A stretch of 64,000 nucleotides of DNA from the NCBI RefSeq assembly GCF_003790525.1, contig NZ_CP033635.1; one strand, written 5' to 3'. The notes beneath the pieces were generated by a model. It searched no databases. It was not told the DNA's origin and was given only the letters and a program-made list of their open reading frames with translations. Of the stretch, positions 46,496 to 51,112 are shown piece by piece. The position numbers and the translations under genes were made by a program. The stretch comes from Escherichia coli (GTDB taxonomy: Bacteria > Pseudomonadota > Gammaproteobacteria > Enterobacterales > Enterobacteriaceae). Position 1 is the first letter of the stretch. Each line of letters begins with the position of its first letter.

Positions 46496-49400
46496 ATGGC
46501 AGATAATCTAAACCCTTCATCGCCCCTGCCGGACGTGTTTTCACCGGCGACCCGCGACTGGTTTCTTCGCGCCTTTAAACAGCCGACCGCTGTCCAGTCG
46601 CAAACCTGGCATGTGGCGGCGCGAGGCGAACATGCGCTGGTGATTGCACCGACTGGCTCCGGGAAAACGCTGGCAGCATTTCTCTACGCCCTCGATCAGC
46701 TCTTCCGCGAAGGCGGCGAAGATACCCGCGAGGCGCATAAGCGTAAAACCTCACGCATTCTCTATATTTCACCGATCAAAGCTCTGGGCACCGACGTTCA
46801 GCGCAACTTGCAGATCCCGTTACAGGGTATTGCCGATGAACGGCGGCGGCGCGGCGAAACGGAAGTCAATCTTCGCGTGGGGATCCGTACTGGCGATACG
46901 CCTGCACAGGAACGCAGCAAACTCACCCGTAATCCGCCGGATATTCTGATCACCACACCCGAATCACTCTATCTGATGCTGACCTCCCGCGCGCGCGAAA
47001 CGCTACGCGGCGTCGAAACGGTAATTATTGATGAAGTCCACGCGGTAGCGGGCAGTAAACGTGGTGCGCATCTGGCGTTAAGTCTGGAGCGGCTCGATGC
47101 GCTGCTCCACACCTCAGCACAGCGAATTGGCCTTTCTGCCACTGTACGCTCAGCCAGCGATGTGGCAGCATTTCTTGGTGGCGATCGCCCGGTTACGGTA
47201 GTCAACCCGCCCACAATGCGCCATCCGCAGATACGGATTGTCGTACCGGTCGCCAATATGGATGATGTCTCATCGGTCGCCAGCGGCACCGGCGAAGACA
47301 GCCATGCCGGCCGAGAAGGCTCCATCTGGCCATATATTGAAACGGGTATCCTTGATGAAGTTTTGCGCCATCGCTCGACCATTGTCTTTACTAATTCACG
47401 CGGGCTGGCGGAAAAACTGACGGCACGATTAAATGAGCTTTACGCCGCTCGCTTACAGCGTTCCCCGTCTATCGCCGTTGATGCGGCCCATTTCGAGTCG
47501 ACCTCCGGCGCAACCTCTAACCGTGTACAAAGTAGCGACATTTTTATTGCCCGCTCACACCACGGCTCCGTCTCTAAAGAACAACGAGCAATCACCGAAC
47601 AGGCGCTGAAATCGGGTGAATTACGCTGCGTGGTCGCAACCTCCAGTCTCGAACTGGGGATTGATATGGGCGCGGTGGATCTGGTGATTCAGGTGGCAAC
47701 GCCGCTTTCTGTTGCCAGTGGGTTACAACGCATTGGACGTGCCGGACATCAGGTTGGCGGTGTATCTAAAGGGCTTTTTTTCCCCCGAACCCGGCGTGAC
47801 TTAGTCGATTCCGCAGTCATTGTAGAGTGTATGTTCGCAGGCAGGCTGGAAAACCTGACACCACCGCATAATCCACTCGACGTCCTTGCGCAGCAAACCG
47901 TTGCCGCCGCGGCGATGGATGCATTACAGGTAGACGAATGGTACTCCCGCGTACGCCGTGCCGCACCGTGGAAAGATCTGCCAGGACGTGTTTTTGACGC
48001 CACGCTGGATATGCTTTCCGGGCGCTATCCCTCTGGCGATTTTTCTGCTTTTCGCCCCAAACTGGTCTGGAACAGGGAGACCGGGATATTGACCGCCCGA
48101 CCTGGCGCTCAATTGTTGGCGGTTACCAGCGGCGGCACCATTCCGGATCGTGGCATGTATAGCGTGTTATTACCCGAAGGTGAAGAACAGGCCGGTTCGC
48201 GGCGGGTGGGTGAACTGGATGAGGAGATGGTATATGAGTCACGGGTGAACGATATTATCACTCTTGGCGCAACCTCATGGCGGATCCAGCAAATCACCCG
48301 CGATCAGGTGATTGTGACTCCTGCTCCAGGTCGTTCTGCCCGCCTTCCCTTCTGGCGTGGTGAAGGTAACGGACGTCCGGCAGAATTAGGCGAGATGATC
48401 GGCGATTTTCTCCATTTACTGGCGGATGGCGCGTTCTTTTCCGGGACTATTCCCCCGTGGTTGGCAGAAGAAAATACGATCGCCAATATTCAGGGGTTGA
48501 TTGACGAGCAGCGCAACGCGACGGGTATCGTTCCAGGTAGTCGTCATCTTGTCCTCGAACGGTGCCGTGATGAAATTGGTGACTGGCGTATTATTTTGCA
48601 CTCTCCCTATGGAAGACGGGTGCATGAACCCTGGGCGCTGGCGATTGCCGGGCGAATACATGCACTATGGGGCGCTGACGCGTCTGTGGTTGCCAGTGAT
48701 GACGGCATTGTTGCGCGCATTCCTGACACCGATGGTAAATTGCCTGATGCCGCGATTTTTTTGTTTGAACCAGAAAAGTTGCTGCAAATTGTCCGCGAGG
48801 CGGTAGGCAGCTCGGCACTTTTCGCCGCCCGTTTTCGCGAATGCGCCGCGCGGGCATTATTAATGCCGGGCCGCACGCCGGGCCATCGCACCCCGCTCTG
48901 GCAACAACGACTGCGCGCCAGTCAGTTGCTGGAAATCGCTCAGGGATATCCGGATTTTCCGGTCATTCTCGAAACCCTACGCGAATGTCTGCAAGATGTT
49001 TATGATCTTCCCGCGCTGGAACGTTTGATGCGTCGCCTGAACGGTGGCGAAATTCAAATATCCGATGTGACGACCACTACGCCCTCGCCTTTCGCCGCCA
49101 GTTTATTGTTCGGCTATGTCGCGGAATTTATGTACCAGAGCGACGCCCCGCTGGCAGAGCGCCGGGCATCCGTACTGTCGCTGGACAGCGAGTTACTGCG
49201 CAATCTACTCGGACAGGTCGAACCGGGGGAATTACTCGACCCGCAGGTCATTCGCCAGGTGGAAGAAGAGTTGCAACGACTGGCACCTGGCAGAAGAGCG
49301 AAAGGTGAAGAAGGATTGTTCGACCTGCTGCGCGAACTGGGGCCAATGACCGTTGAAGACCTGGCGCAACGGCATACAGGCAGCAGTGAAGAGATTGCGT

Positions 49401-51112
49401 CGTATCTGGAAAATCTTCTTGCAGTAAAACGAATCTTCCCGACGATGATTAGCGGGCAGGAGCGTCTTGCCTGTATGGATGATGCCGCCAGGCTGCGCGA
49501 TGCCCTCGGCGTACGACTACCAGAGTCACTGCCAGAGATTTATTTGCACCGAGTCAGTTACCCGCTTCGCGACCTCTTTCTGCGCTATCTCCGGGCTCAT
49601 GCTCTGGTCACGGCTGAACAACTGGCTCATGAGTTTAGTCTCGGTATTGCCATTGTCGAAGAGCAACTTCAGCAACTGCGCGAACAGGGTCTGGTGATGA
49701 ATCTGCAACAAGACATCTGGGTGAGCGATGAAGTATTTCGTCGTCTGCGTTTGCGCTCGCTGCAAGCCGCCAGAGAAGCGACACGTCCCGTTGCGGCCAC
49801 GACCTATGCGCGATTGCTGCTGGAACGTCAGGGCGTATTACCCGCCACCGATGGTAGCCCGGCACTCTTTGCCTCAACATCGCCAGGCGTTTATGAGGGC
49901 GTGGATGGCGTGATGCGGGTGATCGAACAGCTTGCAGGAGTCGGTTTACCCGCCTCACTCTGGGAAAGCCAGATCCTGCCTGCCCGCGTACGCGACTATT
50001 CGCCAGAAATGCTCGATGAATTACTGGCAACCGGAGCGGTTATCTGGTCGGGACAAAAAAAGCTGGGTGAAGATGACGGCCTGGTGGCACTGCATCTACA
50101 GGAATATGCCGCAGAATCGTTCACTCCCGCCGAAGCAGATCAGGCGAATCGTTCGGCGCTGCAGCAAGCGATAATCGCTGTTCTGGCTGACGGAGGAGCC
50201 TGGTTTGCACAACAAATCAGCCAACGGATATGCGATAAAATCGGCGAATCGGTTGATCCCTCGGCTCTGCAAGAGGCGTTATGGGCGCTGGTCTGGCAAG
50301 GCGTCATTACCAGCGACATTTGGGCACCGTTACGCGCCCTCACCCGTAGCAGTTCCAACGCACGCACCTCGACTCGCCGCAGTCACCGGGCTCGTCGTGG
50401 GCGTCCTGTCTATACGCAACCCGTCTCGCCGCTGGTATCTTACAACACACCAAAGCTGGCCGGACGCTGGTCGTTATTGCAGGTGGAGCCACTAAACGAT
50501 ACCGAAAGGATGCTGGCGCTGGCGGAAAATATGCTCGACCGCTACGGCATCATCAGTCGTCAGGCGGTGATAGCCGAAAATATCCCTGGCGGTTTTCCAT
50601 CGATGCAAACGCTTTGTCGAAGTATGGAAGACTCCGGGCGAATTATGCGGGGTCGTTTTGTAGAAGGTCTGGGTGGCGCGCAATTCGCTGAACGTCTGAC
50701 TATTGACCGATTGCGTGACCTGGCGACACAAACCGCGCAAACGCGCCACTATACACCAGTGGCGCTCTCCGCCAACGATCCGGCTAATGTGTGGGGAAAT
50801 CTTCTGCCCTGGCCTGCACATCCGGCAACGCTGGTTCCAACGCGTCGGGCGGGTGCGCTGGTGGTCGTTTCTGGCGGCAAATTGTTACTTTATCTGGCGC
50901 AAGGTGGCAAAAAAATGCTGGTCTGGCAGGAAAAAGAGGAATTACTCGCCCCAGAGGTTTTCCACGCGCTGACTACCGCACTGCGTCGCGAACCACGGCG
51001 GCGCTTTACGCTGACAGAAGTGAATGATCTACCAGTCCGACAAACGCCGATGTTTACGCTGCTGCGTGAGGCGGGATTTTCAAGTTCGCCACAAGGGCTG
51101 GATTGGGAATAG
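46496..51112 (+). CDS. lhr: Lhr, large ATP-dependent helicase-related protein
   Basis: 1538 aa; superfamily-2 helicase motifs (Walker A PTGSGKT, DEVH) in the N-terminal third, then a long C-terminal extension. Confidence 0.95.
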   Translation: MADNLNPSSPLPDVFSPATRDWFLRAFKQPTAVQSQTWHVAARGEHALVIAPTGSGKTLAAFLYALDQLFREGGEDTREAHKRKTSRILYISPIKALGTDVQRNLQIPLQGIADERRRRGETEVNLRVGIRTGDTPAQERSKLTRNPPDILITTPESLYLMLTSRARETLRGVETVIIDEVHAVAGSKRGAHLALSLERLDALLHTSAQRIGLSATVRSASDVAAFLGGDRPVTVVNPPTMRHPQIRIVVPVANMDDVSSVASGTGEDSHAGREGSIWPYIETGILDEVLRHRSTIVFTNSRGLAEKLTARLNELYAARLQRSPSIAVDAAHFESTSGATSNRVQSSDIFIARSHHGSVSKEQRAITEQALKSGELRCVVATSSLELGIDMGAVDLVIQVATPLSVASGLQRIGRAGHQVGGVSKGLFFPRTRRDLVDSAVIVECMFAGRLENLTPPHNPLDVLAQQTVAAAAMDALQVDEWYSRVRRAAPWKDLPGRVFDATLDMLSGRYPSGDFSAFRPKLVWNRETGILTARPGAQLLAVTSGGTIPDRGMYSVLLPEGEEQAGSRRVGELDEEMVYESRVNDIITLGATSWRIQQITRDQVIVTPAPGRSARLPFWRGEGNGRPAELGEMIGDFLHLLADGAFFSGTIPPWLAEENTIANIQGLIDEQRNATGIVPGSRHLVLERCRDEIGDWRIILHSPYGRRVHEPWALAIAGRIHALWGADASVVASDDGIVARIPDTDGKLPDAAIFLFEPEKLLQIVREAVGSSALFAARFRECAARALLMPGRTPGHRTPLWQQRLRASQLLEIAQGYPDFPVILETLRECLQDVYDLPALERLMRRLNGGEIQISDVTTTTPSPFAASLLFGYVAEFMYQSDAPLAERRASVLSLDSELLRNLLGQVEPGELLDPQVIRQVEEELQRLAPGRRAKGEEGLFDLLRELGPMTVEDLAQRHTGSSEEIASYLENLLAVKRIFPTMISGQERLACMDDAARLRDALGVRLPESLPEIYLHRVSYPLRDLFLRYLRAHALVTAEQLAHEFSLGIAIVEEQLQQLREQGLVMNLQQDIWVSDEVFRRLRLRSLQAAREATRPVAATTYARLLLERQGVLPATDGSPALFASTSPGVYEGVDGVMRVIEQLAGVGLPASLWESQILPARVRDYSPEMLDELLATGAVIWSGQKKLGEDDGLVALHLQEYAAESFTPAEADQANRSALQQAIIAVLADGGAWFAQQISQRICDKIGESVDPSALQEALWALVWQGVITSDIWAPLRALTRSSSNARTSTRRSHRARRGRPVYTQPVSPLVSYNTPKLAGRWSLLQVEPLNDTERMLALAENMLDRYGIISRQAVIAENIPGGFPSMQTLCRSMEDSGRIMRGRFVEGLGGAQFAERLTIDRLRDLATQTAQTRHYTPVALSANDPANVWGNLLPWPAHPATLVPTRRAGALVVVSGGKLLLYLAQGGKKMLVWQEKEELLAPEVFHALTTALRREPRRRFTLTEVNDLPVRQTPMFTLLREAGFSSSPQGLDWE

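Follow-up and report, generated by a model that had tools for sequence, protein, structure and literature searches.

The 64,000-nt stretch of Escherichia coli DNA analyzed here (contig NZ_CP033635.1; "the window" below means this whole stretch) contains, at positions 46496 to 51112 of the plus strand, an open reading frame (ORF) that is, judging by its sequence, lhr, which represents the clade of full-length bacterial Lhr proteins (bLhr-HTH) in E. coli. We consider it very probable that the best explanation as a whole is the following: the gene encodes a superfamily 2 (SF2) helicase core fused to an oligomer-forming C-terminal domain (CTD), the protein would also act as a uracil-DNA glycosylase, and the gene would be transcribed by read-through from rnt, located upstream. 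We found no evidence contradicting the assignment of the ORF to lhr. The gene, the structure of its CTD, and the activity of this domain are already known: lhr has been in the literature since 1995, the CTD structure since 2021, and the enzymatic activity since 2023. The side observations reported below are modest leads for specialists and not discoveries.

Identity and location of lhr

Counted from the first in-frame ATG, the ORF comprises 1538 codons and a stop codon. It is the longest ORF within the 64-kb window, where the runner-up encodes 708 amino acids (aa). The product matched the NCBIfam equivalog NF007284 with 3396 bits (cutoff, 1496), and the alignment covered residues 1 to 1538 of 1538. 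At the DNA level, the segment spanning rnt, lhr, and grxD (45700 to 51600) is 100% identical to E. coli SMS-3-5, where the three genes are annotated under these names. The SMS-3-5 identity and the equivalog match bear out an earlier note on this DNA, made from the sequence alone, which called the gene lhr and not novel. The note also described the product as the largest and least functionally resolved protein in the window; it is the largest (1538 versus 708 aa), but the view of it as poorly characterized is outdated. The genes of the segment are as follows:

45756..46403, plus strand: rnt (RNase T, 215 aa); NCBIfam TIGR01298 equivalog (382.9 bits versus a cutoff of 246) and RefSeq annotation

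46496..51112, plus strand: lhr coding sequence; NF007284 equivalog and 100% DNA identity to SMS-3-5 lhr

51163..51510, minus strand: grxD (monothiol glutaredoxin 4, 115 aa); ORF, family match, and RefSeq annotation

Since rnt ends at 46403, the rnt-lhr spacer is exactly 92 bp long, with both genes on the plus strand; the ORF coordinates agree with the distance and orientation given previously. The grxD gene is on the minus strand, and lhr and grxD are therefore convergent.

Helicase core

SF2 motifs were found in the N-terminal part of Lhr only: motif I (GSGKT, residues 54 to 58), motif II (DEVH, 179 to 182), motif III (SAT, 214 to 216), and motif VI (QRIGRAG, 411 to 417). Pfam matches in the same part were DEAD (31 to 218), Helicase_C (350 to 417), WH_Lhr (446 to 616; E = 8e-47), and DEAD_assoc (679 to 867; E = 3e-62). 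The positions of motifs and Pfam domains confirm the earlier statement that SF2 motifs are confined to the N-terminal 800 to 900 residues. The nucleobase-stacking Trp is present at position 620, and the Mycobacterium smegmatis Lhr-Core structure (PDB 5V9X) matched Lhr at E = 5.6e-293. Scores below the respective cutoffs were obtained with the NCBIfam models PRK13767 (575 bits) and ligase-associated DEXH helicase family (426 bits), and Hel308 structures in PDB matched at E of about 1e-17. All the features that define bLhr-HTH are present: SF2 motifs I, II, III, and VI; the first winged-helix module (WH1) with domain 4 and the Trp; a CTD of ~640 aa; and an equivalog score above the cutoff. The protein is divided as follows:

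46496..49186, plus strand: Lhr-Core, residues 1 to 897 (two RecA-like modules, WH1, domain 4, Trp620), from Pfam, motifs, and 5V9X

49187..51109, plus strand: Lhr-CTD, residues 898 to 1538 (winged-helix modules and a β-barrel, with an AlkZ/YcaQ-like subdomain)

E. coli Lhr (EcoLhr) is a single-stranded DNA–dependent ATPase, a 3′→5′ translocase, and a helicase that prefers RNA:DNA, and these activities reside in an 877-aa core (Warren et al. 2021, PMC8053096). In the window allele, residues 1 to ~897 would form such an Lhr-Core, an SF2 ATPase that would load on single-stranded DNA, translocate 3′ to 5′, and unwind duplexes, preferentially RNA:DNA hybrids.

Fold of the C-terminal domain

Residues 900 to 1538 contain no helicase motif; the Pfam domains WH2_Lhr, WH3_Lhr, and WH4_Lhr were found between residues 912 and 1416. 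The isolated E. coli CTD matched PDB entry 7LHL (full-length Lhr, in which the CTD was resolved by cryo–electron microscopy) at E = 1.6e-107. This was the sole match when the CTD was compared to PDB with phmmer at E ≤ 10, and no sequence-level AlkZ/YcaQ match was obtained. Likewise, PF06224 is absent from this Lhr at E ≤ 0.01; some homologues carry a precomputed PF06224 match. Comparison of structures gave the following top matches (PDB entry, followed by the two values listed for it):

7LHL (Lhr-CTD): 36.3; 530

5UUJ (AlkZ): 17.2; 307

9ZD6 (DNA-bound AlkX/YcaQ): 16.2; 316

All matches ranked below 9ZD6 were generic winged-helix proteins. The C-shaped fold of three winged-helix modules and a β-barrel that characterizes the AlkZ/YcaQ (HTH_42) proteins is present in Lhr-CTD; the α/β fold with a catalytic water-activating loop that characterizes the uracil-DNA glycosylase (UDG) superfamily (UNG/UDG) is not. 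About 65 residues are invariant across CTD homologues.

Full-length EcoLhr forms a homo-oligomer in solution; a tetramer was seen for the mycobacterial CTD, which has five winged-helix modules, a β-barrel, and an AlkZ-like subdomain (PMC8053096). M. smegmatis requires both the CTD and the tetramer interface within it to repair crosslinks (Warren et al. 2023, PMC9841417). The CTD of the window allele (residues ~898 to 1538) would similarly consist of five winged-helix modules and a β-barrel and make Lhr homo-oligomeric. Its last three winged-helix modules and the barrel would fold like the AlkZ/YcaQ crosslink glycosylases while lacking their catalytic motif; the Q-φ-Q motif of AlkZ and the Q-φ-D motif of YcaQ are reported to be absent from Lhr-CTD (PMC10953399, PMC8053096, and PMC9040887).

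The domain and structure prediction for residues 900 to 1538 that the earlier note had proposed was run here and reproduced the published conclusions. The architecture described in that note, a helicase core followed by a long extension, stands (the extension is ~640 aa). Its description of the extension's role as far less characterized is outdated, since the homologous structure 7LHL has been solved, a role in oligomerization has been demonstrated, and E. coli Lhr has been reported to act as a uracil-DNA glycosylase.

Reported uracil excision and conservation of Asp1536

Both E. coli Lhr and the CTD on its own are reported to excise uracil, an activity that the D1536A substitution abolishes while leaving DNA binding and unwinding unaffected (Buckley et al. 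2023, PMC10953399). In the same study, Δlhr cells were sensitive to H2O2 and azidothymidine (AZT) and were not sensitive to mitomycin C (MMC). The residue concerned is encoded in the window as follows:

51101..51103, plus strand: codon GAT, Asp1536, reported to be essential for uracil-DNA glycosylase activity (PMC10953399)

The CTD would thus be expected to remove uracil from forked as well as single-stranded DNA in an Asp1536-dependent manner, with the helicase core supplying DNA binding. We also noted that the window allele ends in GLDWE (the last codon is at 51107 to 51109), whereas P0001, the sole 98%-identical full-tail database homologue, and the lhr remnant of E. coli CFT073 end in GLDWG.

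When 96 CTD homologues were aligned over their C-terminal 260 residues, the Asp1536 column was occupied by Arg in 82 sequences and by Asp in 4. All four Asp-bearing homologues are enterobacterial relatives with at least 64% identity. Among the matches listed, none of the 63 actinobacterial loci with full-length lhr encodes Asp at this position; actinobacterial homologues mostly have Arg there. The tail of the family reads AGF..TPxGLRLR, as opposed to AGFSSSPQGLDWE in E. coli. The conservation of Asp1536 goes undiscussed in PMC10953399, and it bears on whether the glycosylase activity is family-wide. The non-conservation does not contradict the data of Buckley et al. 2023; it limits how far the mechanism can be generalized, and the conserved role of the CTD may be architectural.

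The conserved task of the CTD may be to assemble the oligomer and arrange four helicase cores and not to catalyze, the uracil activity being a recent Escherichia-specific gain or non-physiological. We regard this as plausible but, on balance, somewhat improbable. The restriction of Asp1536 to close enterobacterial relatives, at a place where the family consensus is GLRLR, fits such a division of labor, as do the loss of repair caused by tetramer-interface mutations in M. smegmatis and the combination of an absent AlkZ catalytic motif with an occluded cleft. Moreover, in 50 of the 63 actinobacterial loci long enough to tell, among the matches listed, the gene after lhr on the same strand is nei2, a dedicated glycosylase/lyase gene of the Fpg/Nei family (for example, at 10574 to 11347 in locus L010 and at 10564 to 11361 in L030); it overlaps the lhr stop codon in the one locus checked (L010). 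However, the published D1536A effect was seen with both the CTD alone and full-length EcoLhr, with DNA binding and unwinding retained; Δlhr cells are sensitive to H2O2; and ~65 invariant CTD residues are more than a scaffold obviously needs.

Transcription of lhr

The rnt and lhr genes have the properties expected of an operon: they lie on the same strand, the 92-bp spacer is short, and there is no intrinsic terminator between them. Inspection of the spacer revealed no T-tract or intrinsic terminator–like site, and neither the spacer nor the 3′ region matched a known RNA element when 45600 to 51800 was scanned with Rfam (E ≤ 1). One passage of Hajj et al. (PMC8301817), citing Reuven 1995, states that Lhr is co-transcribed with RNase T, and rnt-lhr has been described as a conserved context (Buckley et al. 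2020). Given the gene order, the lack of a terminator, and this statement in the literature, read-through from rnt is the most likely way in which lhr is transcribed. Co-transcription as proposed in the earlier note thus fits the sequence, with the qualification that the spacer contains a promoter-like site. The features of the spacer are as follows:

46411..46442, plus strand: hairpin 1, a perfect stem of 9 bp (GATGCCTGA/TCAGGCATC) that closes a 14-nt loop; no T-tract follows, and the terminator search did not call it

46419..46448, plus strand: candidate σ70 promoter, ATGACA-18-TATAGT (10 of 12 consensus positions), with a predicted start near 46455, in a part of the window (46450 to 46460) that corresponds to about 1,727,070 in MG1655; overlaps hairpin 1

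46452..46491, plus strand: hairpin 2, an 11-nt inverted repeat (GCTATTCCACG/CGGGGAATAGC), 91% complementary

The spacer is near-identical between E. coli and E. albertii, and that of a diverged enterobacterial locus (L005) does not align with it. Hairpin 1 is identical in another E. coli locus (L008), E. albertii, and CFT073. The candidate promoter is the sole σ70 match of at least 10 of 12 positions on either strand of the 64-kb window; such a match arose in 0.76% of spacer shuffles, and both hexamers are conserved in E. albertii. This strong promoter-like site makes an own lhr promoter possible, and lhr possibly has such a promoter within the 92-bp spacer in addition to read-through from rnt. 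The 3′ arm of hairpin 2 covers the Shine-Dalgarno–like GGGGA at 46482 to 46486, located 9 nt before the lhr ATG, and its loop contains the palindrome ATCATGCATGAT. Hairpin 2 is conserved in E. albertii, without informative covariation. Possible roles are to restrain translation of lhr or to provide a binding site.

According to a more far-reaching explanation, lhr would be expressed mainly from the spacer promoter (start near 46455), hairpin 1 would be the 3′ end or stabilizer of a monocistronic rnt mRNA, and the two genes would be largely independent. We consider this unlikely. The rarity and conservation of the promoter match speak for it, and by inspection, a different hairpin follows the rnt stop codon in L005. 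Yet hairpin 1, given its 14-nt loop and the lack of a U-tract, is not a canonical terminator; the 18-nt gap between the promoter hexamers is suboptimal; a consensus match is no proof of function; and the PMC8301817 passage cited above states that the genes are co-transcribed. The earlier note had named an independent promoter together with a terminator in the spacer as what would overturn co-transcription. The first is present as a candidate; the second was not found in the 92 bp between the genes.

The lhr transcripts would end at a hairpin shared with the convergent grxD:

51120..51149, no strand assigned: hairpin between lhr and grxD, with a 12-bp perfect stem and a 6-nt loop (−21.9 kcal/mol; z, −3.7)

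The hairpin starts 8 nt after the lhr stop codon, and a T-run adjoins it on the minus-strand (grxD) side only. By these features, it is predicted to be a canonical intrinsic terminator for grxD and, for lhr, at best a U-less hairpin. The description of the element as "the lhr terminator" was rejected as incomplete, since only the grxD strand carries the U-tract. The strong hairpin previously noticed between the two genes is therefore real, but grxD is convergent and the T-tract belongs to the grxD side.

Natural loss of lhr

To describe the distribution of lhr, we used 5425 complete E. coli genomes with an lhr match, which were classed by query coverage and not by ORF integrity. At least 80% of the lhr query was covered in 4381 of them (100% in every sampled row), with 97 to 100% identity. 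In the remaining 1044 (~19%), lhr is deleted, and about 8% of the query is left. Separately, a search with the window segment returned 5429 matching places, one of them on a plasmid record, and 1 of 5426 genomes gave no match.

The deletion strains sampled (n = 8) are all of the B2 type (CFT073, ST131, NC101, and uropathogenic isolates), and rnt and grxD are intact in them. In CFT073 and the other sampled strains, the lhr remnant consists of the first 105 nt and the last 125 nt, which the NCBI annotation pipeline PGAP annotates as two pseudogene scraps. The junction coincides with 10-bp direct repeats whose positions in the window are:

46597..46606, plus strand: GTCGCAAACC, left 10-bp direct repeat at the lhr deletion junction

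50985..50994, plus strand: GTCGCGAACC, right 10-bp direct repeat at the lhr deletion junction

The deletion shifts the frame because its length, 4388 bp, is not a multiple of three; for the same reason, we rejected the possibility that the CFT073 remnant is an in-frame mini-ORF. Since Touchon et al. 2009 (Table 5) list lhr as a gene that phylogroup B2 specifically lacks, its loss in B2 was known before; the present analysis adds details of the junction and the current frequency. The natural lhr-null B2 lineage (CFT073, ST131, and NC101 sampled) provides ready strains for studying the role of Lhr in tolerance to oxidative stress and AZT.

Independent nonsense mutations in lhr are also found. 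The lhr gene of E. albertii NBRC 107761 carries W595* (TGG to TGA; 4323 to 4325 of locus L009), and in L005, where the gene order is rnt-lhr-grxD-mepH-sodB, a CAG-to-TAG change (about 5956 to 5958) lies between the core and the CTD; either may be a sequencing error. Q245* in lhr arose during experimental evolution under ciprofloxacin selection, and the protein search returned many truncated E. coli and Shigella Lhr products. The earlier note had held that a dispensable C-terminus would speak against its proposal; in nature, dispensability is seen at the level of the whole gene, as the ~19% of genomes with lhr deleted.

Composition and ancestry

No other 4.6-kb stretch of the window is as GC-rich as lhr (56.7% versus 51.1 ± 1.8%), while the GC content of lhr at third codon positions (GC3) is ordinary (55.4%). 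The GC excess is due to the amino acid composition of Lhr (Arg, 9.4%; Lys, 1.6%), which is as in proteins of high-GC bacteria. Scanning genome contigs with the first 500 Lhr residues gave, among the matches listed, 80 loci, of which 2 are from Escherichia and 78 from Actinobacteria. The best non-Escherichia matches among them are actinobacterial (51 to 60% identity over the 500 residues), and rnt lies upstream of lhr in just the two Escherichia loci. The protein search revealed enterobacterial Lhr homologues with 47 to 66% identity. Composition and neighbors are compatible with a high-GC ancestry of lhr and a lineage-specific pairing with rnt; we make no claim of recent transfer, since the best matches are best only among the matches listed and enterobacterial homologues exist.

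That lhr descends from a foreign, high-GC source, is dispensable, and is being slowly lost from E. coli, its place after rnt being an insertion accident, is quite doubtful: the deletion in 1044 of 5425 genomes, the nonsense alleles of E. albertii NBRC 107761, L005, and experimental evolution, the high GC content with ordinary GC3 and an Arg-rich, Lys-poor product, and the actinobacterial matches without rnt would all fit, but four fifths of the E. coli genomes keep at least 80% of the query at 97 to 100% identity (as judged from coverage only), Δlhr cells have stress phenotypes (PMC10953399), RNase T has DNA-repair roles of its own and its pairing with lhr has been proposed to be functional, enterobacterial homologues with 47 to 66% identity exist, and the absence of Salmonella, Klebsiella, and other Enterobacterales among the matches listed is no evidence that they lack the gene.

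Assessment of the proposed mechanism

Several points weigh against the reading of lhr as a helicase-glycosylase gene read through from rnt. The activities attributed to this Lhr are carried over from papers on the K-12 protein, whose gene is ~97.5% identical at the DNA level. Given the non-conservation of Asp1536, the glycosylase step appears less secure as a property of the family. Published work describes the AlkZ Q-φ-Q motif as missing and the AlkZ-like DNA cleft as occluded in the tetramer. Last, given the promoter-like site, lhr mRNA need not come solely, or even mainly, from co-transcription with rnt.

These observations can be combined into a speculative scenario that we offer tentatively and think unlikely to be correct in full. 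In it, Asp1536 would be specific to Escherichia-type Lhr, so that either the glycosylase would have been gained recently on an ancestral scaffold for oligomerization and crosslink repair, or the conserved active site proper would be found elsewhere among the ~65 invariant residues; lhr would also have a promoter of its own in the spacer and a leader hairpin masking the ribosome binding site and would have been lost repeatedly in successful lineages such as B2.

Comparison with known systems

The closest known system is E. coli K-12 Lhr (b1653; Reuven 1995; PMC8053096; PMC10953399). It is the same gene, encoding 1538 aa with all helicase motifs, Trp620, and Asp1536, in the same locus order, nemRA-gloA-rnt-lhr-grxD. 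K-12 lhr and the window allele share ~97.5% DNA identity, and the differences are allelic only.

M. smegmatis Lhr (5V9X for the core and 7LHL for the CTD tetramer) differs in its operon partner, which is nei2 downstream and not rnt upstream. The mutant phenotypes differ as well: the M. smegmatis lhr mutant is sensitive to the crosslinkers MMC and cisplatin, whereas E. coli Δlhr is not MMC-sensitive. Loci of other Mycobacteriales (Tsukamurella, Rhodococcus, and Gordonia) are related to that of M. smegmatis and encode a GLRLR-like tail with no Asp at the position of residue 1536. The neighborhoods of bLhr-HTH genes are said to have "no apparent conservation" in PMC8301817; the lhr-nei2 pairing observed here is more conserved than that.

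The Lhr-Core helicases, that is, Pseudomonas putida Lhr-Core with its metallophosphoesterase (MPE) and archaeal aLhr2, as well as Hel308, resemble the N-terminal 870 residues of Lhr in having RecA1, RecA2, winged-helix, and domain 4 modules. In contrast to Lhr, Lhr-Core helicases have no CTD, and their gene is paired with the metallophosphoesterase nuclease gene. The HTH_42 interstrand-crosslink glycosylases AlkZ and YcaQ (AlkX) are only 13 to 14% identical to Lhr-CTD. Unlike them, Lhr-CTD forms oligomers, is joined to a helicase, and is reported to act on uracil instead of a crosslink.

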